Shown here piece by piece: positions 1,913-43,569 of a DNA stretch of 64,000 nucleotides. This DNA is from an uncultured Gammaproteobacteria bacterium. GTDB taxonomy: Bacteria; Patescibacteriota; Microgenomatia; JALYQM01. The notes beneath the pieces were generated by a model. That model did not search any database, was not told the DNA's origin, and was given only the letters and a program-made list of their open reading frames with translations. Both the position numbers and the translations under genes were made by a program. Location: assembly GCA_964403585.1 (NCBI GenBank), contig CAYOFQ010000001.1, positions 520,630-584,629 on the forward strand, in the 5' to 3' direction. Within the stretch, counting starts at the first letter, position 1; the number at the start of each line of letters is the position of its first letter.

Positions 1913-2761
1913 ATGCATGCACACCGGCCACATAAAGTACACAAACTCATAACGTGGATAAAGAAAAACACTTCGCTGGTAAGTGGTTTAGCAGCAGTGC
2001 TTATTACTCTCCTTTTTGTCTCCTCAGTAGTGCTCCTGGGGCAGTCGGGTCAACTTACCTCATTAAGTCGTATTGGTGCTGTTGATCAGACCATAACCTA
2101 TCAAGAAATCACCTGTACCAGCGTGCTCGTTAAATCCAATGTTGGCTTGCGCGGAAATCTCGTATTGAATGTAATGAATAGCGGCGAGCGAGTAGTCAGC
2201 CAGTCTGCCGCCTTTCAGTTACCTTTTGCCAATGAAACGACCTTAGTAAGATTCCCACAACTTCCTGCTAATGGTGTGTATACTTTTTTCATCACTCAGA
2301 ACACACAAGTTATCGGACAAAATGTTAGCTTCAATATGATGTGTCCAGCTCCGCAAGTATATTTTAACAACCATACCTGCAACTATGTGGATTTAGTAAG
2401 CATCCAGCCACTCCAAGGGCAATTCCAAGTTGCAGTATTATTCGGGTCCGGAGAGGAAGGAGAACCGTCTCAAGTCGTACGGCTCTCACAACCATTTAGT
2501 TTTTCTGCGCAAAATACGGCACGGGCAAGCTTTACTCAGCCGTTGAATAGCAATGATGATTTTATCTATGTTCTGTATCGCAATGGCGTTTTCATTGCCT
2601 ACGGATCCGGAGGCGGAATAAAGTCACTAGAATGTTATGTGCCTCCAACCCCCACACCAACTCCTAATCTTCCTCCTGCAGGGACAGTGGATTCGATTAC
2701 CGACGGACTTATCAGAGGGTGGGCACGTGATCCCAATACAACAGCACCTATTCAGGTCTAG
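1913..2761 (+). CDS. Membrane-anchored extracellular protein, N-terminal segment of a gene interrupted by an in-frame TAG. It carries an N-terminal TM helix and a 4-Cys domain paralogous to 3884-4436.
   Basis: ATG at 1913, followed by a hydrophobic anchor (LVSGLAAVLITLLFVSSVVLL). Strong similarity to the N-terminal half of the 3698-5941 product (TCxS, CPAP, HTCN, PLNSNDDF, LECY, then a PTPTP linker). The frame is terminated by TAG at 2759-2761. Confidence 0.55.
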   Translation: MHAHRPHKVHKLITWIKKNTSLVSGLAAVLITLLFVSSVVLLGQSGQLTSLSRIGAVDQTITYQEITCTSVLVKSNVGLRGNLVLNVMNSGERVVSQSAAFQLPFANETTLVRFPQLPANGVYTFFITQNTQVIGQNVSFNMMCPAPQVYFNNHTCNYVDLVSIQPLQGQFQVAVLFGSGEEGEPSQVVRLSQPFSFSAQNTARASFTQPLNSNDDFIYVLYRNGVFIAYGSGGGIKSLECYVPPTPTPTPNLPPAGTVDSITDGLIRGWARDPNTTAPIQV

Positions 2762-2830
2762 TTATTTATCGATGGGGCACCAGACATTCTTTTCCCTAAC
2801 CGGTTTATCGGCTCAGTCGCAGCAAATCAA

Positions 2831-3610
2831 TTGCGCTCTGATCTTCCATTTGCGGATAAAAATCACGGATTTACCTTTCAACTATCCCCACTGCTCTTTC
2901 AAAATACCGGAACCCATCGACTTTTCGCGTATGGTATAGACAGCGCTGGTGGCGCAAACCCGCAGCTGTCCGGGAGTCCATACACTTTTACCTGGGTTAG
3001 ACCGAGTCCGTCCCCAAGCCCGTCCCTTTCACCATCCCCAAGTCCAACACCGACACCTACTCCATCACCATCACCAACACCAACCAGATCACCATCGCCT
3101 ACGCCCACCCCCACACCGGTGGCCTATGGCTGTGAGAATCAGAGCTTCTATAGCGTCAACTTATCATATCCGCACACCAAAGCCTGCTTCTTTGTCCCAA
3201 ATCTGATGTATGATCAGGAAAATCGGTTTAATATTTTCCATATCCCTACTAACTATTCTGTACGGTTCCCATTTGTGCGAACAGAAAATGTAGGCATCAA
3301 AGAGGATCGAAATCTGCAGTGGTCAATAACCTCTCAAGTAGCAGGTCAGGTTTTTGTTATGTACCGTAAAATTCCCGGCCAGGTTCCACCTGGTTGGATT
3401 ACAGATAAATATCAGAAAATGACCACTGATGACTGGTCAAATTTAAATCAATATGTGTTACGCAAAAACGAACTTGGATTGATCGGTGTATACGATATCT
3501 ACCGAACAACGATGAACGGCCCAAACACGACAGTGGAATTTGGCCCCGCATCAGATAATAATGTAACGGCATTCTCAATGTACTTAGTCGGAATCAGTCC
3601 CGGTTTATAA
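2831..3610 (+). CDS. Same reading frame as 1913-2761, continuing past the TAG. Encodes the tail of a GWxxDPD..VHIYxD-type domain, a PS/PT-rich linker, and a C-terminal 'YRKIPGQ' domain.
   Basis: Same frame as the upstream ORF. The track start at 2831 is a TTG. RSDLPFADKNHGFTF aligns with RSDLTAEKANHAFNW of the 3698-5941 product. The C-terminal 145 aa match the N-terminal domains of the 12253-14022 and 42121-43569 products. Confidence 0.45.
   Translation: MRSDLPFADKNHGFTFQLSPLLFQNTGTHRLFAYGIDSAGGANPQLSGSPYTFTWVRPSPSPSPSLSPSPSPTPTPTPSPSPTPTRSPSPTPTPTPVAYGCENQSFYSVNLSYPHTKACFFVPNLMYDQENRFNIFHIPTNYSVRFPFVRTENVGIKEDRNLQWSITSQVAGQVFVMYRKIPGQVPPGWITDKYQKMTTDDWSNLNQYVLRKNELGLIGVYDIYRTTMNGPNTTVEFGPASDNNVTAFSMYLVGISPGL
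3001..3120. repeat. Low-complexity tandem tract encoding a Pro/Ser/Thr linker (SPSPSPTPTPTP...)
   Basis: The ccg/tcc/aca/cca codon periodicity is visible directly in the sequence. It generates spurious His-rich and Gly/Asp-rich ORFs in the other frames. Confidence 0.8.
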
Positions 3611-3697: not shown

Positions 3698-5941
3698 ATG
3701 AAAAGTTTCCATACTCATAGAGACAAAGGGTTTCTTGGGTACTTGCGCAAGAATAAAGCACTTGCAAGCGGGCTTGCTGCCGTGGTACTGACAATACTCT
3801 TTGTTTCTACCATTATAATTTCAGGCAAATCCACACAACTAGGGATGCTTTCTCAAACTAACGCTGCAAATCCTGTAGTAAAATTTCAGGACGCTACCTG
3901 TTCCTCGGCAATTGTCAGTACCGACCAGGTCGTAAGTGGCTCGTATACTGTCAATGTCCTTAATGGGAGCGGGGATTTGGTCGGACAATCAGCGGCGTTC
4001 AACTTCACCGGAGAGACTCATTATGTAACATTCCCGTCTCTAGGATCGAGCGATTATTTTAGTTTTAACCTTAAAAAAAATGGGGTTACGTTTGGAACAC
4101 ATTCTCCTAACGAAAACTATCGCTTTAATTTAGTATGTCCAGCACCAACGGTATGGTTCTCGCAACACACCTGTAATTCTGTACAGGTGGCAACTTCTCA
4201 GGCATTATCAGGAACGTATCAGGTAGGAGTTTCTTTTTCAAATGGTGGAGAACGGGATAGGCCGACAGAGTTTATTAATCGATCAAGAAACTTTACTTTT
4301 AATGGACAAAATGCAACGGCTACATTTGAACGTCCTCTTAACAGCAATGACGACTTTTATTATACATTGCTTAAAAATGACGTAATGGTCGGAAGAATCG
4401 GATTCGGCAGCCCGAAAGCACTTGAGTGCTATGCCGATCCAACCCCGACTCCGACACCGCCACCATCCTGGAAAGTTAACATGCAAGCCGTATGTCCAAA
4501 CGGCAACGCACCGACCAGAATGTCCGGAAGCGTTGGAACTCGCTGGAGACCATATCCGTACACCGTTAACGGACAAGAAGTAGGCTACACCGATGGTGGA
4601 GCAGCTAACGCTACTGGGTTATCAGTTATTACAGCACCGGTAATAAATAGAGATCTGAACTGGTTTGCCTATATGTTCTATCGCTATCCAAACGGAGGTG
4701 CTTTAGTTCAAACATTACCGACAATCGGCGCAATGCCAAACAGTCATTTTGAATCACATGACTACAATCCAGACAATTTAAGGTATCAGATTACCTGGGA
4801 TGAACAAACTCCCGTTAATACCTATACGGTTAAATTTAAGTTACCAAACGATGCTCCCGAATGTGCCGGTACTACCACTCAAGGTCAACGCCCGGTTGGT
4901 AATGTCGACGGAGTATATAATGATTCCAGCTTAGGCTATGTCGTCTCAGGATGGTCTTTGGATCCTGACTCCACTTCAACCAAAATTAAAGTACATATCT
5001 ATGCTGATAAAGAATTCTCAGCATCCGATACCAGTGGATACGCCGGTGAAGTGGTTGCCGATGATCCGCGTTCAGACTTAACCGCTGAAAAAGCCAACCA
5101 TGCGTTTAATTGGGTAGTACCCGCTAGGTTTAAAGATGGTAATGCCCATACGTTCTATGTATACCCAATCGATTACCCCTCAAACACCGGATATGACATT
5201 GGTGGAGGAAAGGCCTTTAGTATAGGGAAAGTAACCTATACATTCCCAACAGCATCCGCAAGCCCAAGCGGCTCTCCGGTAGCCTGTTCCAATAAAGACA
5301 TCATGATGGTGATGGACACTTCAGGAAGTATGTCCGGAAGTAAGATTCGCGATGCTAAAGCAGGAGTCAAAGCACTCGTCGCAAAATTACCATCTAATGC
5401 CAACGCTCGCGCAGGATTAGTAGGATTCGGAACTCATGCCTACATTGCTGCAGACATGACGCAAACAATGAGTAAAGTAACTGAGGCGTCAGATAAATTA
5501 CGAGCCTCCGGTGGAACCAACCTTGCCGAAGGTATTACCACAGGCTCGAGTAAAATTGCCGCGGATAATCGAACCCACGTCATGCTGATCATGACCGACG
5601 GTATCGCCAACCTTCCACGCCCGAGAGAAATCGGTCCAAACGAACCCGCTGCATATGCATCAGCACAGGCAGCTGCAACCGAAGCAGTTGCTGCAGAGGT
5701 AGCACGCGGACTACGAACAGTATTCTATACAGTTGGATTAGGCAGTAAGAGTCAACTGAATTCAACCTGGCTCGATGCTCTTGCCCGTGGCACGGGTGGA
5801 AAGAGTGTCTATGTTTCTAAATCAACAGAATTAGATAACAAATTCACTGAACTGGTAACCGAAATGTGTAAGGAAACACCTGCATCAGGTAACCCTGAAT
5901 TCCTTAATAACTTACGGGGATTGACTGCTCCAAGACAGTAA
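3698..5941 (+). CDS. Membrane-anchored extracellular multidomain protein: 4-Cys domain, PT linker, GWxxDPD..VHIYxD domain, C-terminal von Willebrand factor A domain
   Basis: N-terminal TM helix. Paralogy to the 1913-3610 gene. VWA MIDAS motif DTSGSMSGS, with downstream MLIMTDGIAN motifs. Stop TAA. Confidence 0.8.
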   Translation: MKSFHTHRDKGFLGYLRKNKALASGLAAVVLTILFVSTIIISGKSTQLGMLSQTNAANPVVKFQDATCSSAIVSTDQVVSGSYTVNVLNGSGDLVGQSAAFNFTGETHYVTFPSLGSSDYFSFNLKKNGVTFGTHSPNENYRFNLVCPAPTVWFSQHTCNSVQVATSQALSGTYQVGVSFSNGGERDRPTEFINRSRNFTFNGQNATATFERPLNSNDDFYYTLLKNDVMVGRIGFGSPKALECYADPTPTPTPPPSWKVNMQAVCPNGNAPTRMSGSVGTRWRPYPYTVNGQEVGYTDGGAANATGLSVITAPVINRDLNWFAYMFYRYPNGGALVQTLPTIGAMPNSHFESHDYNPDNLRYQITWDEQTPVNTYTVKFKLPNDAPECAGTTTQGQRPVGNVDGVYNDSSLGYVVSGWSLDPDSTSTKIKVHIYADKEFSASDTSGYAGEVVADDPRSDLTAEKANHAFNWVVPARFKDGNAHTFYVYPIDYPSNTGYDIGGGKAFSIGKVTYTFPTASASPSGSPVACSNKDIMMVMDTSGSMSGSKIRDAKAGVKALVAKLPSNANARAGLVGFGTHAYIAADMTQTMSKVTEASDKLRASGGTNLAEGITTGSSKIAADNRTHVMLIMTDGIANLPRPREIGPNEPAAYASAQAAATEAVAAEVARGLRTVFYTVGLGSKSQLNSTWLDALARGTGGKSVYVSKSTELDNKFTELVTEMCKETPASGNPEFLNNLRGLTAPRQ

Positions 5942-10615: not shown

Positions 10616-11116
10616 CTACTGTGTCTGAATTTTCACACCCTTAAGTTCATCCAGTTGTTTCTTTAACAAATCGTGCTGCAAATTGACATCAAGCGTCCCG
10701 GCGAGCGACTTTTTGGCGATGAGTGCTGCCAGACGAACAGCTTCCTCGTCAAGACTCATACGTCGGCGGTCAAGTTCGGTTTCGGCTTGCTCAACAATCT
10801 TACGCGCCTCAGCCTGTGCAGCAACTTTAGCTTCCTCATGCAACTTTACCGATAACTCTTGAGCGCGTTCACGCATCTCTTCAATTAATTTCTGACCTTC
10901 AACCCGTGCTGAGTTCACGACGTCACTCTTCATTGATTCTGCCTCAGCCAGTTGCTGCTTAACTTTCTCGGCATTAGCAAGGCCTTCTTTAATCTCCTCA
11001 TCGCGTTTTTTCAAATATTTTTGAGTCGGAGGAACAACAAATTTTGCAATAATGACGTATAGAATCAGAAAATTCAATGCCTGCCAAATGATCTGCTGTA
11101 AATTTAATATTTCCAT
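10616..11116 (-). CDS. atpF: F1Fo ATP synthase b subunit
   Basis: N-terminal TM helix followed by a long charged coiled coil. 166 aa. Confidence 0.8.
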   Translation of the reverse strand: MEILNLQQIIWQALNFLILYVIIAKFVVPPTQKYLKKRDEEIKEGLANAEKVKQQLAEAESMKSDVVNSARVEGQKLIEEMRERAQELSVKLHEEAKVAAQAEARKIVEQAETELDRRRMSLDEEAVRLAALIAKKSLAGTLDVNLQHDLLKKQLDELKGVKIQTQ

Positions 11117-11140
11117 ATGTTTCCTATTCTCTTAATGACC

Positions 11141-12149
<1,009 letters not shown>

Positions 12150-12252
12150 AGATGGATATAAAAAGCAAGCTTATTACACGGAAATTATATCGTGCCTCAA
12201 CTCTTCACACAAGTAGCATCACAGTGATATAAATCACATGGCATATTGCGAA

Positions 12253-14022
12253 CTATTGGTGTGTCCAGTCTGTCCAGGACATATTTTTTCCACCGCCACC
12301 GGTGGCTTTCGTCGGATAATGCTGACCGTAGGCTTTATTGATTACCCAAGTAACCCAGGGCTCGTTATTCATCCATTGTGAGCCGAACTGTTGAGATAAA
12401 TAGTACTGGTAATCCAGTGTCCGCAGGGGAGCGTTATTCTGTATGAAGTAGGCAGGATATCCCGCACGGGATAATAATTCTGCCTGCATAATATATCCTT
12501 GCATACCTTCCCACGGGTATTGAGTATATCCCGGAGGCCAGCTAAACGCGCCGCCTCTTCCTTGGTCATTTACAATTGCACCATCAATCTTATGGCCATT
12601 TTTAATTGATCCCGCCGGGTTCACAGCAACCTGTTTGGACGAATCGGTAGTATATGACCACGAAATACCATTGTCATTCAGGTTTGGACGGCAGCTCGGA
12701 CACTTGGTCACATCACCGGAATACCGCTGATAGGTTTGCCAAGCTTTTTCAACTTCGGCACTATCCCCGAGATAGAGCGCTGCAGCAATCCGAGCACCTC
12801 CGGCGAGCGCGTCCCCGTTACTTGAACCATTATCATGAGATTCACTTAAGTTATATTCGGGAACACTTCCGTTGTTCCGGCAATTCTTTTTATACCTGAT
12901 ATAGTTAACATAATTTGCCCAGCGGGTACCTTCATTGCCGTCCGTACCAGCTCGAAGATTGATAATATCTGCGGCAATAATATAACTCGGCAAATTTCGG
13001 GATAGAGCCAGCGAGCGGGCTTTGCTCGGCGTAGTTTCACAGTCTGCGTCCCGGTTGGCATCAGTACCGATTGCTGACAAAATCGCCGCAACTGCCTTCG
13101 CACGATATGCCTGGTCTTTAGTTTTTGCCGCAACTAAGGCAACTGCCAAAGTGCTCTGATCATGCTGTGAATTCTGGTCGGCCAAATTAGCGCTTCCAAT
13201 CGAACTGTCGGCCCTTGATTTAAGATCATTCCAGGCTTGACCACTTGCCGGCAACCGGTCAATATCTGCTTGAGAAATCCAAATTCCGGTTTTTACCTGG
13301 CCTGAAGGGAGGGGAGTTTGAGCTGTCGGCACGACTGTCGGCAATTGCGTCGTAGAGCGGGGAGAAACACCAACTATATACATCGAATACGCTTCTCCGG
13401 TTTCCGAATACGGGGCTCCAAAGGTTACAACTGATGCACTGGAAACAGCCTTTTGGTAAATATGATACACACCAATCAACCCCTGTTCATTTTTTCGGAG
13501 CATAAACGGTTGTAAATTGGCGTATGAATCACTGGTAACTCGGGTATATGAGGAAAGCCAAGCCGGAGCCGGTTGACCGGGAATTTTACGATAGAATACA
13601 TAGACATCCGCAGGTTGGGTGATGGTCACATTCCAGGAGAGCAGATGATTCGCTTTGAGTGACACATTTTCGGTACGGATAAAAGCTACCTGTTTCGCCT
13701 GCAGCGCCGTTGGTGTGCTGAAAAAAGTAAACCGGTTATCTCCGAGATACATCACTGCTCCAGGCGTTAAACAGCCGACTTGAGTCTCATATGGGGACTG
13801 AGAAGCAAAAGATATCTGTCCAATGGTATTAAGTGTTGCTTGGGTACAGGGTATGGTTTGGGCAGAGGAATTATCCTGGGTGCGAATAGTAAAAAGGCTG
13901 TTATTCTTAACTATACCCACCACCAGTAATGTGAGGACGAACGTCATTGAGCCAATCTTTAATAATGTTTGTAACGCTTCGGTACTACGCATAAAAATCT
14001 TCTGATTATTATTAAGTACCAA
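12253..14022 (-). CDS. Secreted/anchored protein: N-terminal 'YRKIPGQ' domain, PT linker, large C-terminal domain of unknown function (possibly a carbohydrate-active enzyme)
   Basis: Signal/anchor MTFVLTLLVVGIV. FYRKIPGQPAPAW..FMLRKNEQGLIGVYHIY matches the 3176-3610 and 42924-43359 domains. The true start may be the internal Met (MRSTEAL..) near 13992. Confidence 0.7.
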   Translation of the reverse strand: MVLNNNQKIFMRSTEALQTLLKIGSMTFVLTLLVVGIVKNNSLFTIRTQDNSSAQTIPCTQATLNTIGQISFASQSPYETQVGCLTPGAVMYLGDNRFTFFSTPTALQAKQVAFIRTENVSLKANHLLSWNVTITQPADVYVFYRKIPGQPAPAWLSSYTRVTSDSYANLQPFMLRKNEQGLIGVYHIYQKAVSSASVVTFGAPYSETGEAYSMYIVGVSPRSTTQLPTVVPTAQTPLPSGQVKTGIWISQADIDRLPASGQAWNDLKSRADSSIGSANLADQNSQHDQSTLAVALVAAKTKDQAYRAKAVAAILSAIGTDANRDADCETTPSKARSLALSRNLPSYIIAADIINLRAGTDGNEGTRWANYVNYIRYKKNCRNNGSVPEYNLSESHDNGSSNGDALAGGARIAAALYLGDSAEVEKAWQTYQRYSGDVTKCPSCRPNLNDNGISWSYTTDSSKQVAVNPAGSIKNGHKIDGAIVNDQGRGGAFSWPPGYTQYPWEGMQGYIMQAELLSRAGYPAYFIQNNAPLRTLDYQYYLSQQFGSQWMNNEPWVTWVINKAYGQHYPTKATGGGGKNMSWTDWTHQ

Positions 14023-14054
14023 CTTGCGTTAAAGTGCAATAACAAAGGTCACTG

Positions 14055-14085
14055 TTGACAGAACAATATACGTCCGACGTACTAT
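14055..14085 (+). promoter_or_regulatory. Candidate sigma70 promoter for the 14114 gene (TTGACA, 19 nt spacer, TACTAT)
   Basis: A -35 consensus hexamer. The atatacgt..actatag element is shared with the promoter of the paralogous downstream gene. The spacer is long. Confidence 0.3.
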
Positions 14086-14113
14086 AGTAGTATACAGTTA
14101 AGTATCTTAATGT

Positions 14114-16585
14114 ATGGTGCCATCTTTTTTTCGTACAAATTCAGGGAGAACGAAATTCGCTTTTGCCATAGCGGTACTCTTGTTTGTCGGAGTATTTATC
14201 TACAATGGTAAGCTGTCTCCGGTCCAAAGTACCAGCTGCGGAGCCAACTGCTCCTTAAAAGAAATCGGTACTATCGACGGTCTGGGTAATTTTTCCACTA
14301 CGCCAACACTAATAAAGGACCAGCCGTATTGGGTTCGACTCACTATCAACGGCCAGGACAATCTGGTTGCTACACCTGGTCCAACTGCCACACCTGCGCC
14401 AAAGGGTGTAGACACAATGATGTACATTGACCTTTCTTCTAGTATGTTAGAAAATTATCCGAAATATAATCCGGATAACGGGACGGATGTTATCATGTAT
14501 CAGGCAGCTCAGACTGCTTTGAATAAATATATTGACTCTTCAGATCAGGCCAATGATTATCTTGGGTTTGGTACCTTTACCTGGTGTATTAATTACAAAA
14601 ATTCCGCCACACCCGTTTGGTGGTCTTACGACGACTTTAATCGGGGTGATGGAAAAATGGTCGGATTCAGTGCCGTACATATTCCGTTGCGCCCCATGGC
14701 CAATAACCCCAACTATTATAAAAACATTATTAACAGTATTACCTTCAACGGTGATGATGCCGATTTTTGTGCCGGAACCGGTCTTTCGCATGAACCAACC
14801 TCCAATGGTGGACCATACAATACGACAGGAGAGTTTCACGGAGGCACCTCAATTGGTGGGGCAATCACCGGAGCAAACACCTTCCTTACACCAATACTTA
14901 ATGATCCAAAAGCGAAGCGCAAAGACGGTACCAGCTATCGGGACAGTGTCAAAAGTAAGAATCTTTCTACCTATAACCGTAATATGGGACCATATGCCCG
15001 CCAGTACACAACCGGGGCGGCTATTCCCAAGTATATTATTCTTGCCACCGACGGCGGAGAAGGGGTACCGCCGTTAGTTACTGATGAGGATATCGATCAC
15101 AATACCCGCACTATAGTACAGAACGCGAAGCAACATGGTGTAAAAATATTTATGGTTATCACCAGAAGACAAAGCAGCCTATCTGCTAATGGAATCGCCA
15201 GAATTAACTATATCACCGGTACTACCGGAGGTAAGGCCTATTACGGCAATTCTGAGCAGGAATTAGTTGCTAATTTTTCCAACATCCGCACCGATATCGT
15301 TGAGGATTCTAATGGTGGTGCTATTCCTTCCGGCACACCGGTTGCCAAAACCGACATCACCGTTACCGAAAAGGTCAATGCTTCGTATTTCAAAATCGAC
15401 GAACCCACGCATAGTACTCCGATTACCTTTAAAGTCGGGCAGCCTGGCTCACCTGAAACAGATATCACTAATTTGATGTGTAAAGACAGCAACTCGGATA
15501 CCGTGCCGGACTGTGTCAGCAATAAAAAGTACAACGCTTCGGGCAATCTGATCGGCTATGATGTAACGCTCGATCCAATCGGTTTCGGCCAAACCCGTTA
15601 CATTTATTTCAGAGTAACCCCAACTAAGTCTACCGGAGGACTCTCCGTTCCGGTCGATGAAGACCCGACCAGTGTCATCGACTATGAGGATATTCCCGCT
15701 ACCGTCAATTTGGATAACGTTAGTGTCGTTATCACCGAGGCCAGTCTGTTCTTTCAGGTATTCGGTGGAGGCGATGTCTATTCGGCATCAAATGATGTGA
15801 CCAAATCTATTTATTCATTCCTTCCCGGATCAACAGACCTCTTCAGTTCGGTGGCTAATGTTGTTTTTCATCGGGGAGGGGCAACCTATGGTAACGGAAA
15901 AGTTAATTCGAAAAACAGGGAAGTTGACCCGTATGCAATTACCTATGATCCGGTACAAATGAGCTATAACACTTTATATAACGAATACAGCAAGTTAATG
16001 CCGGCAAGTAATATTAAGAACATTTCCGGTCTTTCCGATTTCACTACCTCCGGCTACTACATGGATAACACCAGTACCAGCAATGGTAAATTTGAGATCA
16101 AAGGAGCAGGCTGGACCGGACAAAATTTGCAGGGCAAAAAAATCGTCATGTTTGTTCCCGGCAATCTATACATCAGTACTAATTTTTCCGTCGAGGATGA
16201 CGGAAATAGTTTACTTGTGTTTATTGTTAAAGGAGATGTCGGTATCGATCCCGACGTAACCAATGTTCAGGGTGTCTATATTGTCGACGGGAAAATAGAT
16301 ACTGCCTGTAAATCGTCATCCTCCTTCAACGCCGCCAACAGTTGTTCGCCGGATGCCGGAGCGAACGGTACCGAAAAACAATTAACGCTGGAAGGCATGT
16401 ATATAACTAATTCCATCGATCCGCTGACCAAAGGATATAACGGGTTAGCGGGAGGATTCCTTTTGGATCGCAAGCCTACAACTGCTATTCCCGGTGAACG
16501 GTTTATATACCGTCCCGACTTCATCATGAGCACTTCGTTAAGTATTGGCCGCAAAAGCTATACCTGGATCGAAAACACACAATAA
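14114..16585 (+). CDS. Large membrane-anchored extracellular protein with a VWA domain (tandem paralog 1)
   Basis: N-terminal TM helix. MIDAS-like DLSSSM, with ATDGGEG later. 823 aa. Co-linear similarity to the 16643-18967 product. Confidence 0.8.
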   Translation: MVPSFFRTNSGRTKFAFAIAVLLFVGVFIYNGKLSPVQSTSCGANCSLKEIGTIDGLGNFSTTPTLIKDQPYWVRLTINGQDNLVATPGPTATPAPKGVDTMMYIDLSSSMLENYPKYNPDNGTDVIMYQAAQTALNKYIDSSDQANDYLGFGTFTWCINYKNSATPVWWSYDDFNRGDGKMVGFSAVHIPLRPMANNPNYYKNIINSITFNGDDADFCAGTGLSHEPTSNGGPYNTTGEFHGGTSIGGAITGANTFLTPILNDPKAKRKDGTSYRDSVKSKNLSTYNRNMGPYARQYTTGAAIPKYIILATDGGEGVPPLVTDEDIDHNTRTIVQNAKQHGVKIFMVITRRQSSLSANGIARINYITGTTGGKAYYGNSEQELVANFSNIRTDIVEDSNGGAIPSGTPVAKTDITVTEKVNASYFKIDEPTHSTPITFKVGQPGSPETDITNLMCKDSNSDTVPDCVSNKKYNASGNLIGYDVTLDPIGFGQTRYIYFRVTPTKSTGGLSVPVDEDPTSVIDYEDIPATVNLDNVSVVITEASLFFQVFGGGDVYSASNDVTKSIYSFLPGSTDLFSSVANVVFHRGGATYGNGKVNSKNREVDPYAITYDPVQMSYNTLYNEYSKLMPASNIKNISGLSDFTTSGYYMDNTSTSNGKFEIKGAGWTGQNLQGKKIVMFVPGNLYISTNFSVEDDGNSLLVFIVKGDVGIDPDVTNVQGVYIVDGKIDTACKSSSSFNAANSCSPDAGANGTEKQLTLEGMYITNSIDPLTKGYNGLAGGFLLDRKPTTAIPGERFIYRPDFIMSTSLSIGRKSYTWIENTQ

Positions 16586-16642: not shown

Positions 16643-18967
16643 ATGTATAAAAAAATTTTCCTCTCCCTGAATGCGCTCTTGTTCCTCACCATCTTTGTCT
16701 ATTTAGGTAAAACAACTTTCGTGAAGGGAGCGAACTGTGCATCTAACTGTACGACCAAAGAAATTGGGACGTTAGGAAAAGATGCATTCGGCCGGGATGT
16801 ACTTAATCCGGTTGATCCGGTCGCCGTCAATAAATCTTACTGGGTAAAGCTTTCGGTGAAAGGCCAGGACACAACTACTTCCACGATCCCAACTGCCTTA
16901 CCGTCACCTACTACGACTACTATCTCATACGGAAGCGACATTATGATGATGTTGGACACCACTACCAGTATGTATGACAGTATTCCGGTAAATGCTGATG
17001 GTAGCGGCGGAACCGTACTTACCTATGAGGCTGTTCGTGATGGTATGGTGCGAATGGTTAATCTTTCCAGTGATCCGCTGGACTATTTAGGCTTTGGGTC
17101 ATTCCGCCTCTGTCGCGGGTATACTTCTACTACCACACCTGTTTGGTGGGTATACGAAGACTGGAACCGGGCTGATGATGGTTACCGTGGTACAAGCGCC
17201 ATCCACCTGCCACTACAGCCTTTAAATGGGCGAAAAACACTTTTTACCAATACCATTAACAGCATCACTATTTTAAATGACAGCGGTAAAAACAATAACT
17301 TCTGCCGTAGTTCCGGTGTTGACTCCAACGGCTTTCATGGCGGTACCAGTGTCGGTGCCGCGATTACTGCTGCCGATACACAGTTAACTCCGATTCTCAA
17401 CGACTCCAAAGCAGTACGCCGGGACGGCTCCAGTTATCGTGACTCAACAAGAGTCGGAATCAATGGCTATAACGATGGTCCCCGTACTCGATTCGGAGTT
17501 CCGAAGTACATCGTATTAGCCACCGATGGCGGAGAAGGCGCCCCACCACTTATCGATGACCCTGATATCGATAAAAACCTGCGGAGTGCCTTGCAGACTG
17601 CAGCCCACTATGAAATAAAAATTTATGGCATCGCCTTTAGCCGGCCCGGTAATAACGATTATCAGAAATTGGAAAGAATAACTACCACTACCGGAGGAAA
17701 AATCTTTGCGGGTAATTCAAGGCAGCAAATTCTCCAGTCCGTGGAAGCGATCCGTAACGAAATAACCAAGGAATCGCAGGGCACTCCACCGCCATCCCCA
17801 TCACCTTCATTTTCAACTACCGGTTCAACTGCCACCATTAATGAACGAATCAATAGTTCTAATTTTTCAATTTCAACAATGAATAACACAACATTCAAAT
17901 TGATTAAGCGTAATACGGACGGGAGTGTCACTAATATCACGTCTACTTGCGGCTCCGGTTTAGCCGCCTGCTTAAGTAATGCCTCCAGCGCCGGATTTGA
18001 TTTAAAGCTGCCGCAAATCGGCTCGAATGAAGAAATATATGTCTACTTTATGGTCACCCCGACCACCGCCAGCGATCCCGGGCAAAAAGTACCGGTCGAC
18101 AAGGATCCTGACAGTATCATCAAATACTCAAACGGGCATCAGGAGAATATCCGTAACGTTCAAGTAGGCGTTGTTGCCAATAAGCCGTATTTTGAATCCC
18201 AGAATGGCGGCGATATCCACACCCGCGGCGGGCTGCTCGTTGATATGCCGGATACGTATAAGTTTATCCGGGGTACCTACCCGGGTATTTTAAGTTACGG
18301 CGGCAGTGCTGTGGTAAGGCCCAACAATAATCAATTGAGCAGTAAAAACTGGAAAATCGGCGGCGGCTCTCCGGGATACCAGGTAAACGCGCAGAAATAC
18401 ACCTATCAGGCACTCCTCGCAACTATCAAATCAAAGAAAACTATTACCAGTCTATCTCAGATAACCGGATCCGGTTTTTACGTAGTAAACGGAGATCTTA
18501 CTATTAATAGTACCAATAAGCTGCCTAACTTATTGACTTCAACTCAGCAAATTGTGCTATTTGTCAATGGAAATGTGTATATTCGAACAGCTATTCCTCT
18601 TTTCGGCAATCCGAATAATAAATCGTCTCTGGCTATCATCTCTTCTAAAAACATCGGCATTGATCCGGCAGTCAGTGACCCCGGGGGCACCATCGCCGGG
18701 ATCTATATCGCTGACGGCGTCATCGATACAGCCTGTTCGGGCACGTTCTCCTTTACCCAGTGTACTCCCGGAGCACCAACCTTGCATAACTCATCACTGA
18801 CCCTGGAAGGAATGTTCCTGGCTGCCTCGGGTTTCAATCTGGACCGGTACGGAACTCCGGACGTTCCGGCCGCCGGCGAGAAATTTATCTATCGTCCGGA
18901 ATTGTTATTAACCGCTGCACCACAACTTGGGTCGCTTTCATCGGTATGGCAGGAGATATCGCCTTAA
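16643..18967 (+). CDS. Large membrane-anchored extracellular protein with a VWA domain (tandem paralog 2)
   Basis: N-terminal TM helix. MIDAS-like DTTTSM, with ATDGGEG later. 774 aa. Paralog of the 14114-16585 product. Confidence 0.8.
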   Translation: MYKKIFLSLNALLFLTIFVYLGKTTFVKGANCASNCTTKEIGTLGKDAFGRDVLNPVDPVAVNKSYWVKLSVKGQDTTTSTIPTALPSPTTTTISYGSDIMMMLDTTTSMYDSIPVNADGSGGTVLTYEAVRDGMVRMVNLSSDPLDYLGFGSFRLCRGYTSTTTPVWWVYEDWNRADDGYRGTSAIHLPLQPLNGRKTLFTNTINSITILNDSGKNNNFCRSSGVDSNGFHGGTSVGAAITAADTQLTPILNDSKAVRRDGSSYRDSTRVGINGYNDGPRTRFGVPKYIVLATDGGEGAPPLIDDPDIDKNLRSALQTAAHYEIKIYGIAFSRPGNNDYQKLERITTTTGGKIFAGNSRQQILQSVEAIRNEITKESQGTPPPSPSPSFSTTGSTATINERINSSNFSISTMNNTTFKLIKRNTDGSVTNITSTCGSGLAACLSNASSAGFDLKLPQIGSNEEIYVYFMVTPTTASDPGQKVPVDKDPDSIIKYSNGHQENIRNVQVGVVANKPYFESQNGGDIHTRGGLLVDMPDTYKFIRGTYPGILSYGGSAVVRPNNNQLSSKNWKIGGGSPGYQVNAQKYTYQALLATIKSKKTITSLSQITGSGFYVVNGDLTINSTNKLPNLLTSTQQIVLFVNGNVYIRTAIPLFGNPNNKSSLAIISSKNIGIDPAVSDPGGTIAGIYIADGVIDTACSGTFSFTQCTPGAPTLHNSSLTLEGMFLAASGFNLDRYGTPDVPAAGEKFIYRPELLLTAAPQLGSLSSVWQEISP

Positions 18968-41369: not shown

Positions 41370-42131
41370 ATGTACGATCAGGTCTTTATAGAAAACAAGC
41401 AAACTAAAGTCGGCATTAATCCGCAGGGAGGGTATGTAACCTCCTGGAAAATTAATGACACGGATATCCTCTATCAGGGTAGCTCAATTCGTCGTACCGG
41501 CATTCCAATCCTTTTTCCCTACTATGGAAAAGCACATCAGACGCGCATGCATGGATTTGGGCGGGACTGCCAATGGGAAATCAGTACTCATGATCAGGCA
41601 TCGGTGACAATGGAACTGACACCGGACAATCTTACCGAAGAAGACCGCCGTGATTATCCATTCGAATTTTCCGCTCAAATTACTGTTAACCTTCTTAGTG
41701 ATTCCGAACTACTGTATACACTGGAAGTTACAAATAATGATTCCAAAGATCTGCCTATTTCACCGGGGATTCACCCGTATTGGTCGATTCCGCATCAGGA
41801 AAAGCCGGCCATTTCGATTAACGGAATTAATGGATTCAGCGCCGCATCAGTTGATTGGAACAATACCCCGCCTGATGATCCGTATGATTTTTCGGGTCAA
41901 GCCACCGTCAGTTTAGGAAATAAGACACTTGGTATCGAAGAGCTTTCATTACCACGAGTCGTAAAATTTTTACAGCTCTGGTCTCAAACTCCGGTTCGGG
42001 ATCCTGATTTTAATTTCCTTTGTGTCGAACCAATTTGCGGGCTGAATTACGGCATTGAAGAATCACCGTTATTAGTAAAACAAGGTGAAACGTGGCAAAT
42101 GAAGGTTAGGTTTTCTATTACTAGTGTGTAA
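41370..42131 (+). CDS. Aldose 1-epimerase family protein (mutarotase-like)
   Basis: 253 aa. Galactose-mutarotase-like beta-sandwich motifs (GIPILFPY..G..HGF.R.). Confidence 0.65.
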   Translation: MYDQVFIENKQTKVGINPQGGYVTSWKINDTDILYQGSSIRRTGIPILFPYYGKAHQTRMHGFGRDCQWEISTHDQASVTMELTPDNLTEEDRRDYPFEFSAQITVNLLSDSELLYTLEVTNNDSKDLPISPGIHPYWSIPHQEKPAISINGINGFSAASVDWNNTPPDDPYDFSGQATVSLGNKTLGIEELSLPRVVKFLQLWSQTPVRDPDFNFLCVEPICGLNYGIEESPLLVKQGETWQMKVRFSITSV

Positions 42132-43569
42132 CAACAGCATTGTATACCACTACTTCACCATAGTTATTCGCAGAACATAATCCGGACGCTTCAGTACTAC
42201 AATTGGATTGGGTATACGCTCCGGTTTTAAAATATGCACCCGAATACGCTCGTGTCAGTGTATAGGCCGGAGTAGCAGCTCCATTGTAATAAATCATCGT
42301 CTTCCCGCCACTCGCTACAAAGCGTACCGTAAATCGCTTTCCCAAAGTATAGTTTGAATCCAAAGTATATACATGCTGGTCTCCTCCCGGGGGATTTGTA
42401 CCAACATTGACATATAAATTCGGCAGTTCAAGACGAATAACAATCACATCATCATCGGCATCATGAATCTGTCCGGCCACTACGTGTTTTTTAGTCTGGG
42501 GTACGGCAGTAATTGCCTGATCTAATGTCATCGTGTGCGTACCACTGGTATTATTCCAGGCTGCATTAAAGGTTCCGTTACTGACCATCTCCCGCAATTC
42601 CGAGCGGGGATATTTTGATCCGGACGTATGCGCTCCATTAACTGGTGCTCTGAAAATTACTCCGTTACGCGAGGAATTAACTTTAAACCATTCATCTGTA
42701 TATGTCGCCAGCGCGGGTTGCTTAATTTCTGTTGGACTACTCCCGTTTAGGGGACTCGGCAGTGTAATTTTCCAATTCGTTAGATTTAATACCTGCGCAG
42801 GCAGGTTCCCTGTTCCGCCGGTTGGTATCGGGGTAGAAGTTGGTGTAGGTGAAGGAGATCTCGATGGATTCGTTGTTGCGGTTGGTGACGGTGTTACCGT
42901 TGCTGAAGGTGAAGGAGTTATTGTTGCCGACGAACTGGGAAAAACAGTATTCCCTTTAATTGCCAAAATATACATTGAATATGCGGTGACAGTACTATCG
43001 GATGCCGGCCCAAAATTTACAACACCTGCAGAATTGGAGTTCCTCTTCCATATGTCATATACACCAATCAGCCCCTGCTCATTCTTACGGAGTACAAATT
43101 GATTCAAATTACTGAAATCATCAGTAGTCATCTTAGTATAGTGAGACTGAATCCATGAAGGGACGCTTTGACCGGGTATCTTGCGATAATAAATATACAG
43201 ATCATGAGAACTCTGAAAATTAATAGACCAGGATAAGGTGGGTAGATCTTTTAATCCGGCATTTTCAGTTTGTATAAATGTAAGATTGCTCGGCATCGAT
43301 CCCGGAACCACAAAAAAAGTATAGCGCGAATCACCCGCGTACATTTGTGTGCCGGCTTGAACACACTGTTCAGTAAACGTTTTCCCGGGCGGGGGTTGTA
43401 TGGCATATCCGGTCGAACAGCTGACAGCGTACTGCAAATCAACGGAATTAATTTTAAGCAAACTTCGGGCCTGAGTAAAAACAACAAGGCTCAAAACAAA
43501 TACAGTGAGAATTACTATCAGATGGCTCCGCATACGCTCAGTATGACAGTTGTTAGTTCTCGCGGTCAA
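42121..43569 (-). CDS. Secreted protein: N-terminal 'YRKIPGQ' domain, PT/PS linker, C-terminal PL7-like (alginate lyase 2 family) polysaccharide lyase domain
   Basis: Signal peptide. PL7 signature trio RSELRE, QIH and YFKTGAYTQ. N-terminal domain IYYRKIPGQSVPSW..FVLRKNEQGLIGVYDIW. Confidence 0.8.
   Translation of the reverse strand: MTARTNNCHTERMRSHLIVILTVFVLSLVVFTQARSLLKINSVDLQYAVSCSTGYAIQPPPGKTFTEQCVQAGTQMYAGDSRYTFFVVPGSMPSNLTFIQTENAGLKDLPTLSWSINFQSSHDLYIYYRKIPGQSVPSWIQSHYTKMTTDDFSNLNQFVLRKNEQGLIGVYDIWKRNSNSAGVVNFGPASDSTVTAYSMYILAIKGNTVFPSSSATITPSPSATVTPSPTATTNPSRSPSPTPTSTPIPTGGTGNLPAQVLNLTNWKITLPSPLNGSSPTEIKQPALATYTDEWFKVNSSRNGVIFRAPVNGAHTSGSKYPRSELREMVSNGTFNAAWNNTSGTHTMTLDQAITAVPQTKKHVVAGQIHDADDDVIVIRLELPNLYVNVGTNPPGGDQHVYTLDSNYTLGKRFTVRFVASGGKTMIYYNGAATPAYTLTRAYSGAYFKTGAYTQSNCSTEASGLCSANNYGEVVVYNAVVTH

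Follow-up and report, generated by a model that had tools for sequence, protein, structure and literature searches.

A module of ∼150 residues that recurs in three genes of a small-genome (candidate phyla radiation) bacterium is best described as a discrete non-catalytic β-sandwich and a putative glycan-binding, CBM-like targeting module, a reading to which we assign a probability of about 0.55. Among the roles considered, carbohydrate binding or surface targeting appears to fit best, and it is favored because the module occupies the slot filled by CBMs in homologous enzymes and because its structural relatives are accessory domains of glycosidases. The three copies, named A, B and C, lie in a 64-kb window, the whole stretch of DNA analyzed here.

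Copy A occupies positions 3128–3607 of the plus strand when its conserved cysteine pair is included (core 3167–3601, residues 419–563 of the 1913–3610 reading; GCENQ...VGISPGL) and forms the C-terminus of its gene, as located by BLASTP and tblastn. Copies B (minus strand, 13348–13857, core ∼13360–13791; BLASTP, tblastn and alignment) and C (minus strand, 42940–43434, core ∼42958–43374) are N-terminal and directly follow a signal/anchor segment and a signal peptide, respectively. Pairwise BLASTP with composition correction aligns A with B at 41% identity over 146 residues (E 4e-31), A with C at 49% over 140 residues (E 1e-41) and B with C at 39% over 231 residues (E 1e-41). The alignment of the three copies contains 47 invariant columns, which include two cysteines, probably joined in one disulfide, and the motifs YRKIPGQ, LRKNE.GLIGVY and SMY. 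The first-pass annotation had placed the module at three loci close to these positions and had named failure of the segments to align as grounds for giving the idea up; the identities of 39–49% and the E values bear its proposal out. A tblastn search with each copy against the six frames found no fourth copy in the window, the next matches having E values of 0.77 or higher, and an Rfam search of the window detected no RNA features.

The gene that carries copy A, previously described as a single gene spanning 1913–3610, is not one intact ORF; an in-frame TAG (2759–2761, plus strand) lies within its GWxxDPD-type domain. The part upstream of the TAG (1913–2758, plus strand) encodes an N-terminal membrane anchor, a domain that contains Cys and the first portion of the GWxxDPD domain, and a Pro/Ser/Thr linker (2996–3124, plus strand; translated as VRPSPSPSPSLSPSPSPTPTPTPSPSPTPTRSPSPTPTPTPVA) stands ahead of copy A. 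Homology to the VWA paralog described below runs on past the TAG, with the stop aligned with a histidine. A sequencing error is unlikely because the same split into ORFs of 282 and 134 residues is found in two independent Logan assemblies, and stop-codon recoding is ruled out by the ordinary use of TAG in the window, where it terminates eight of 35 long ORFs. The nonsense codon therefore leaves just two of the three window copies in intact secreted proteins, and the earlier count of three such proteins holds for B and C, with gene A falling away.

The protein that carries copy C has a signal peptide (43435–43533, minus strand; MRSHLIVILTVFVLSLVVFTQARSLL, predicted by eye from the translation, with the start taken from the NCBI-called 470-residue product P0006), the module, a Pro/Thr/Ser linker (42790–42957, minus strand; ...PSSSATITPSPSATVTPSPTATTNPSRSPSPTPTSTPIPTGG... 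in translation) and a PL7 alginate-lyase domain (42124–42789, minus strand; PF08787, E 2.5e-42, residues 261–482, full model). The lyase motifs RSELR, QIH and YFKTGAYTQ are present and correspond to the R*E*R, Q*H and YFKAG*Y*Q signature of PL7 lyases (PMC10811132), in agreement with the earlier assignment of one partner as PL7-like. The protein that carries copy B begins with a hydrophobic signal or anchor (13858–13992, minus strand; MRSTEALQTLLKIGSMTFVLTLLVVGIVKNN..., likewise predicted by eye, with the start taken from the NCBI-called 579-residue product P0010), which is followed by the module and a short Pro/Thr-rich linker (13294–13359, minus strand; RSTTQLPTVVPTAQTPLPSGQV in translation). 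In both proteins the placement of the module behind a signal peptide and before a Pro/Thr linker, as first reported, is seen in the translations. The catalytic-type partner of copy B (12256–13293, minus strand) gave no match at E ≤ 0.1 in a direct hmmscan search; PF05426 is present in its homologs, dozens of which align at 38–50% identity (E 1e-52 to 1e-105). What had been called a large unknown domain in 12253–14022 is thus recognizably a putative alginate-lyase-like domain of the PF05426 type. In these homologs the N-terminal slot held by the module is filled by CBM96, in many of them, or by an F5/8-type-C domain plus PA14.

Gene A adjoins a gene for a VWA-domain surface protein (3698–5941, plus strand; VWA_2, E 2.5e-14; VWA, E 1.2e-12), to which its N-terminal 243 residues are paralogous (39% identity over 249 residues, E 3e-50); on the side of the VWA protein, the shared part comprises the N-terminal 246 residues and the GWxxDPD domain. 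Divergent from the copy B gene are two large secreted paralogs (14114–16585 and 16643–18967, plus strand; 34% identity over 837 residues). Their C-terminal domain of ∼400 residues also occurs in VWA proteins beside stand-alone module genes and has matches at loci L003 and L008. In a related MAG, the syntenic gene bears an ortholog of the module joined to another N-terminal body. This exchange of bodies, together with the two paralogies, upholds the mosaic architecture that the first-pass annotation had described. The same neighborhoods could be taken to indicate protein–protein docking, in which the module would assemble enzymes on VWA surface proteins, either in a cohesin/dockerin-like manner or as an adhesin complex. 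Module genes do stand beside VWA or VWA-like genes, as A does by 3698–5941, B by the divergent 14114–16585 and the stand-alone module gene P0002 by the gene for a 681-residue VWA protein that follows it; the pair of a stand-alone module and a VWA/W-like gene is kept in a second genome (L008), and the syntenic arrangement that links B to the 14114 and 16643 paralogs is kept at L009. However, this adjacency is explicable by a mere cluster of surface-protein genes, no repeated 'scaffold' receptor was seen, and the relatives by fold are glycosidase accessory domains rather than docking modules, so that docking is considered improbable.

A profile of the three copies retrieved only four proteins from a word-indexed search of 5.8 billion proteins and missed copies B and C, and an exhaustive search of 1.84 billion representative proteins was therefore carried out. 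This comparison with sequence collections, which had been suggested at the outset, yielded ∼55 close relatives, 54 of them at E ≤ 1e-10. The module is N-terminal in 35, C-terminal in 12 and alone or fragmentary in nine, with one copy in each protein, as expected of the shuffled domain that had been proposed. A hydrophobic N-terminal segment is present in 42 of 49 relatives, and the flank facing the partner consists of at least 50% Pro, Thr and Ser in 25 of 43. Partners of the CAZyme type are PL7 (two), PF05426, GH5, GH31, GH39, GH88 and β-helix domains (three); other partners are cytochrome b5 (seven), phytase (three) and metallophosphoesterase (three). At least four paralogs of the module are encoded in the genome of the window and at least ten in MAG JALYQM01, and the family includes stand-alone proteins that consist of anchor, linker and module (P0002 and P0003). 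The close family appears to be restricted to one Patescibacteria lineage.

SLH, CWB2, LysM and GW modules display exoproteins on the cell surface in Gram-positive bacteria, and the census bears on a similar role here, namely a cell-envelope anchor that binds the wall or S-layer polymer of its own cell and displays unrelated exoproteins without substrate targeting. The functional disparity of the partners (lyases, glycosidases, phytase, metallophosphoesterase, cytochrome b5 and adhesin-like bodies), the number of paralogs in each genome, the narrow lineage, the stand-alone proteins and the invariable single terminal copy are all consistent with such an anchor. Most of the proteins, however, already possess an N-terminal hydrophobic anchor or signal; no likeness to the SLH, LysM, CWB2 or SH3b models was found in Pfam at E ≤ 10; substrate-binding CBMs fill the slot of the module in homologous lyases; and the wider superfamily described below occurs as tandem repeats in glycosidases and in T9SS-secreted proteins of the Bacteroidota type, which have a different envelope. 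An envelope anchor is thus possible, although somewhat unlikely.

The isolated modules match no family in Pfam-A at E ≤ 10 in any of the three copies, the whole proteins show no NCBIfam match on the module, and neither the three-copy profile nor a 47-sequence profile found anything meaningful among the sequences in the PDB. The first-pass annotation had named membership in a well-known CBM or Pfam family as a result that would refute its proposal, and neither library assigns the module to one. Identity with CBM96 was rejected (hhalign probability 0.1% for the 47-sequence alignment against 13 CBM96 segments), as was identity with CBM32/F5_F8_type_C (PF00754; 0.6%), the positive control reaching 99%; neither family gave a Pfam match. 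These results, together with the E values of 1e-31 to 1e-41 obtained with composition correction, make it highly improbable that the similarity among the copies is due to chance or low complexity or that a known Pfam or CBM family was overlooked, and both possibilities are refuted for the libraries tested (Pfam-A, NCBIfam and hhalign against CBM96 and F5/8-type-C).

Structure prediction for copy C gives a confident all-β model (pLDDT 94.3, pTM 0.89). The structural search that had been proposed alongside it found relatives only among the accessory domains of two glycoside hydrolases, 6HPD and the GH138 enzyme 6HZE/6HZF, and the predicted fold of the module is that of the 6HPD domain. 6HPD supplies the sole solved member, the C-terminal domain (residues ∼866–988) of a GH2 β-glucuronidase, of an unnamed repeat superfamily with the consensus YxDRxYT...TANDDK...VYVAYDxR...PxWL...AGxVxLGGN...NYxV; the superfamily profile matches residues 866–988 of 6HPD with an E value of 5.3e-17. 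The module aligns with this superfamily in hhalign with a probability of 99.0% (E 3.1e-18 over 139 columns, 47 sequences; 98.5% with six sequences), and the profile of the module family retrieves repeat proteins at E values of 1e-11 to 1e-3 in hmmsearch. The module had initially been deemed unassignable to any family: this stands in so far as no Pfam-A or NCBIfam model covers it, but it is not an orphan, as it has a superfamily with one solved structure. That superfamily is found as two to four tandem copies within large secreted proteins, whose other domains include fn3, PKD, Big_5, BACON and T9SS-tail; its members are named 'hypothetical protein' in RefSeq and, for the 6HPD-type domain, have no Pfam or NCBIfam annotation. 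Such a distribution, with tandem copies and partners of this kind, is typical of CBMs. A search of the literature other than the two primary structure reports found no description of the related 6HPD or GH138 domains and no biochemical data on them or on the module itself. The superfamily motifs DR.YT, TAN.DK, VYVAYD.R and NY.V are partly kept in the module as D.RFTFF, T.N..K, VY..YRKIPG and SMY.V. Since the motifs are kept in part and the module is always present as a single copy, it is a divergent clade of the superfamily and not a typical member.

The solved relatives also bear on whether the module might be a structural or regulatory appendage that stabilizes, oligomerizes or shapes the active site of its partner without binding a ligand independently. 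In 6HPD the related domain is one of five in a compact multidomain glycosidase, lies within the enzyme without a tether and may be structural there. In the module family, on the other hand, long linkers of low complexity separate the module from its partners, and the module is found at either terminus of at least 12 unrelated catalytic folds and also stands alone. These features cannot be reconciled with a structural role tied to one partner, and such an appendage is regarded as very unlikely.

If the module is indeed a glycan-binding targeting domain, the proteins would be exported by their N-terminal signal or anchor, the flexible Pro/Thr/Ser linker would keep the module apart from the enzyme body, and the module would fix the enzyme to the surface of a polysaccharide, thereby raising the local enzyme concentration. 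Conservation of Arg37, Lys62, Arg84 and Arg116 is complete or no lower than 90%, Lys85 and Lys117 are conserved in half of the sequences or more, the median pI is 8.6 and 79% of the modules carry a net positive charge. The conserved basic residues and the pI hint at an anionic ligand, against which it must be said that the net charge is only mildly basic. Our leading guess is a uronic-acid-rich or other anionic polymer, such as an alginate-like exopolysaccharide or a host envelope glycan. A CBM matched to the substrate of its enzyme leaves the cytochrome b5, phytase and metallophosphoesterase partners and the adhesin-like body of gene A unexplained, and given these three partner types, to describe the module as a substrate-specific 'lyase CBM' is too narrow. 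A more speculative and rather doubtful extension is that the module acts as an address tag or lectin of an episymbiotic Patescibacteria clade and fixes a whole exoproteome (alginate and other polysaccharide lyases, glycosidases, phosphatases, cytochrome b5 proteins and VWA-linked adhesins) to the surface polysaccharide of a host bacterium. In that event it would be a recognition element of host attachment and envelope attack and not an ordinary substrate CBM.

The module, most likely a tag by which secreted enzymes adhere to a polysaccharide, is a candidate new carbohydrate-binding family rather than a new kind of system, and it leaves the general understanding of modular extracellular enzymes unchanged. 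Were binding to be demonstrated, it would found a new CBM family and give a first function to the wider unnamed β-sandwich superfamily that includes the C-terminal domain of 6HPD. The module marks a coherent exported set of polysaccharide lyases, glycosidases, phytases, phosphoesterases and cytochrome b5 proteins in candidate-phyla-radiation cells and could therefore point to the polymer that these small-genome cells inhabit or attach to. A profile built from the 47-sequence alignment would also make dozens of 'hypothetical protein' regions annotatable.

Among known systems, the module and the 6HPD superfamily share a core that comprises, in the numbering of copy C, Tyr32, Arg37, Pro44, Thr56, Asn58, Lys62, Trp/Phe69, Tyr83, Pro92, Trp94, Gly142 and Tyr155, although sequence identity is just ∼13–20%. 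The module family differs in its own signature (YRKIPGQ, LRKNEQGLIGVY and SMY), in an extension at its N-terminus that contains two conserved cysteines, in being always single and linker-tethered where the superfamily mostly has two to four tandem copies, in partners that include phosphatases and cytochrome b5, and in its seeming confinement to one Patescibacteria lineage. The likeness to the GH138 enzyme BPa0997/BP0997 (6HZE/6HZF) is to an accessory β-sandwich and was seen at the level of structure; the GH138 domain is embedded in a multidomain enzyme, unlike the linker-tethered module. SLH, CWB2, LysM and GW modules resemble it in being one terminal unit on many unrelated exoproteins per genome and in being lineage-restricted. 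CBM families known on alginate lyases are CBM13, 16, 32 and 96 (PMC9971899). CBM96 (PF24517, the DNRLRE domain) is a β-sandwich accessory module of alginate lyases and, as the alginate-specific CBM of lyase Dp0100, binds alginate in a basic groove rich in Lys and Arg (PMC9971899); it takes the same N-terminal slot before the PF05426-type lyase in homologs of the 12253–14022 product and is analogous to the module by position only. CBM32/F5_F8_type_C modules play the same part in the architecture of homologous lyases (P0088 and P0173). In the CAZy concept, a CBM is an uninterrupted stretch of sequence that forms a discrete fold within a carbohydrate-active enzyme and has demonstrated carbohydrate binding. 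As regards the structural part of this concept, the module has a confidently predicted autonomous fold and is fused to PL7, PF05426, GH5, GH31, GH39, GH88 and β-helix partners.

BLASTP (composition-corrected) relates the three copies of the ~150-residue module in the window to one another with E 4e-31 (A–B; 41% identity over 146 aa), 1e-41 (A–C; 49% over 140 aa) and 1e-41 (B–C; 39% over 231 aa). Copy A (nt 3128–3607, + strand) forms the C-terminal end of the 1913–3610 reading, copy B (nt 13348–13857, −) lies after the signal or anchor of the 12253–14022 product and copy C (nt 42940–43434, −) after the signal peptide of the 42121–43569 product. Searches of the whole window with each copy (tblastn) returned three loci and no fourth copy, the next matches having E ≥ 0.77, and the alignment contains 47 invariant columns, including YRKIPGQ, LRKNE.GLIGVY, SMY and two cysteines close to the module start. 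On this evidence the likeness is real, as the first-pass annotation had proposed for a single module at three loci near these positions. The isolated module matches nothing in Pfam-A, even at E ≤ 10, in NCBIfam or among PDB sequences, in keeping with the first-pass annotation, which could assign it to no family; as far as the libraries tested go, chance similarity and an overlooked known family can both be all but dismissed. A word-indexed search with the three-copy profile gave '4 homologues', badly under the true family size, and overlooked genes C (P0006) and B (P0010), both within the searched collection. Relatives beyond the window were recovered by HMMER with a six-sequence profile against 1.84 billion representative proteins: 80 at E ≤ 1e-3, including 54 at E ≤ 1e-10 and 42 at E ≤ 1e-30.

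More weakly, at E 1e-11 to 1e-3, the profile also picks up large secreted proteins of other bacteria with two to four tandem repeats of ~140 residues and the pattern YxDRxYT..P..L....I.TAN.DK....SF......VYVAYD.R....P.WL.........Y.K.F.AG.V.LGGN.....NY.V. No Pfam or NCBIfam model was found for these repeats, and proteins of this superfamily are named 'hypothetical protein' at source, including RefSeq WP_242918665.1 (Pontibacter liquoris). Profile–profile comparison joins the window family to the superfamily with a probability of 98.5% using six sequences and 99.0% (E 3.1e-18, 139 columns) using 47. The superfamily profile matched one PDB sequence, 6HPD (a GH2 beta-glucuronidase; residues 866–988, E 5.3e-17), and no description of the function of this one solved structure was found in the literature. 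Sequence comparison and structural modelling independently agree that the module and the 6HPD accessory domain share one fold, with a looser likeness to a GH138 domain. The module is outside every structurally characterised CBM family; profile tests of it as CBM96 and as F5/8-type-C gave probabilities of 0.1% and 0.6%, respectively, against 99% for the positive control.

The close module family appears to be restricted to a lineage of Patescibacteria. Scanning one genome per GTDB species located the module outside the source genome in only two MAGs, JALYQM01 ('bacterium MDV bin63'; six loci) and CAZHTP01 (two loci), and the flanks of these loci yielded additional copies. A fourth copy in the window's 1.57-Mb genome, P0002, is a stand-alone form comprising an anchor, a Pro/Thr linker and the module. 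SecA places the organism in Patescibacteria, which supports the CPR origin proposed earlier; its nearest named relatives (51–55% identity) are Chisholm-, Shapiro-, Davies-, Beckwith- and Gottesmanbacteria and CPR3, and closer relatives, at 75–87% identity, include the contigs of JALYQM01 and CAZHTP01. Gene C orthologues and the module family occur on CAZHTP010000002.1 (L005 and L012), labelled 'uncultured Gammaproteobacteria bacterium', and SecA on a 233,965-bp contig is 87% identical to the window's; CAZHTP01 looks like a misassigned Patescibacteria MAG.

The 1913–3610 reading (+), described in the first-pass annotation as one gene with a C-terminal module, does carry the module but is not a single uninterrupted ORF, being broken by an in-frame TAG at 2759–2761 within a GWxxDPD-type domain. 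The same split into ORFs of 282 and 134 aa occurs in two independent Logan assemblies (SRR16481186 and SRR16481187), and the domain's likeness to its paralogue in the adjacent VWA protein continues over the TAG, which pairs with a histidine. Since TAG terminates eight of the 35 window ORFs of ≥250 aa (TAA 26, TGA 1), it is a normal stop and its recoding in gene A is out. Taken together, these observations indicate that gene A is probably a nonsense-mutated gene, a recent pseudogene. Restart 3' of the stop (TTG 2831, or the ATG of the 134-aa call) would give a product without an export signal. Copy A, downstream of the TAG, retains every family-invariant residue. The window has a GC content of 44%. 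TGA is strikingly rare as a stop (1/35), and since table 11 leaves long ORFs intact, nothing points to its being recoded. Gene A is also a mosaic, in which both the opening 243 residues and the GWxxDPD domain have paralogous counterparts in the VWA protein; the N-termini (~245 residues; anchor plus Cys-containing domain; 1913–2641 and 3698–4435, both +) share 39% identity (E 3e-50) and form a domain that lies outside all Pfam families.

Alginate-lyase-type domains are the partners of two window copies out of three. The partner of copy B (12256–13293, −), previously taken for a large unknown domain, is alginate-lyase-like and probably of the PF05426 ('Alginate_lyase') type, which many homologues at 38–50% identity (E 1e-52 to 1e-105) carry; direct hmmscan of gene B did not detect the PF05426 model at E ≤ 0.1. 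The partner of copy C is a PL7 domain (PF08787, E 2.5e-42) with the motifs RSELR, QIH and YFKTGAYTQ, which match the PL7 signature quoted in PMC10811132.

Representative relatives always carry one module: 35 have it N-terminally right behind the signal and 12 C-terminally, whereas in nine it stands alone or is fragmentary. Of 49 relatives, 42 have a hydrophobic segment at the N-terminus, and Pro, Thr and Ser make up ≥50% of the partner-facing flank in 25 of 43. Partners among 48 representatives are cytochrome b5 (seven), beta-propeller phytase, beta-helix and metallophosphoesterase (three each), PL7 (two) and, once each, PF05426, GH5, the GH31 C-terminal domain, GH39, GH88, DUF4832 and DUF4874, fn3 and LamG; the haem-binding cytochrome b5-like, phytase and metallophosphoesterase domains (representatives within P0024–P0052) would not usually accompany a CBM-like module. 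Further fusions at the loci involve one phytase, two beta-helix proteins and one HEMTHH-containing body; in a 711-aa module protein (L010, 492–2627) HEMTHH, possibly a HExxH zinc-metalloprotease motif, lies in an N-terminal body without Pfam match. A second module gene, divergent from the B paralogue (L011, 8601–9746, −), encodes 'QPAHIHSGTC' C-terminal to the linker, which may recall CHRD-type domains. Linkers, numerous partners and stand-alone forms are hard to square with a purely structural role of the kind that the domain could play within 6HPD, a reading we regard as improbable.

In JALYQM01 (L009) the surroundings of B are kept, including the ATP synthase operon and a pair of large paralogous proteins. 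Shuffling of the module is seen in this synteny, because P0020 (621 aa), beside atpC, joins copy A's closest relative (59% identity) to an N-terminal body that is unrelated. The large proteins (~800 aa; 14114–16585 and 16643–18967, both +) share 34% identity across 837 aa and give no more than faint matches of VWA-like type (NCBIfam BatA, E 0.003–0.04). In the window's own genome the P0002 gene (L003, 10001–10732) is directly followed by a 681-aa VWA gene (10780–12825), the C-terminal part of whose product resembles the 14114–16585 product; this gene pair is conserved in JALYQM01 as P0003 and a W-like gene (L008, 11631–12365 and ~13248–14384). This conserved adjacency of a stand-alone module to VWA genes in two genomes would suit a module that docks onto a protein partner, which we nonetheless regard as improbable.

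The best-supported reading is that of a non-catalytic glycan-binding module, for which we infer binding, ligand and site. A flexible linker would tether it to an exported enzyme, which it would concentrate on polysaccharide. The strongest single argument is positional: where B bears the module, N-terminally, homologues of its lyase-like domain bear CBM96 or else F5/8-type-C together with PA14. CBM13, 16, 32 and 96 make up the CBM families known from alginate lyases (PMC9971899). Weaker support comes from the module's sole fold relatives being CAZyme accessory domains and from the tandem-repeat distribution of the superfamily, which is typical of CBMs. Conserved basic residues (R37, K62, R84 and R116 at ≥90%, with K85 and K117 conserved too; C-module numbering), a median module pI of 8.6 and partners and structural relatives described as uronate-directed hint at an anionic ligand and add similarly weaker support.

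The width of the partner range, from phytase, phosphoesterase and cytochrome b5 to adhesin-like bodies, is awkward for a substrate-matched CBM and fits a general surface anchor with affinity for the envelope polymer of the cell itself, a possible but distinctly less probable alternative. SLH and LysM modules anchor proteins to such a polymer, and the module's role would then be likened to theirs. A host-surface lectin of an episymbiont would make the module more interesting, and seems rather unlikely. As a putative glycan-binding module it is a promising candidate to found a new CBM family, and the family is useful for annotation. What is new is a module family that has no Pfam or NCBIfam model and forms a separate clade with its own motifs in an unnamed superfamily; its kind, the linker-tethered beta-sandwich accessory module on secreted enzymes, is already familiar.
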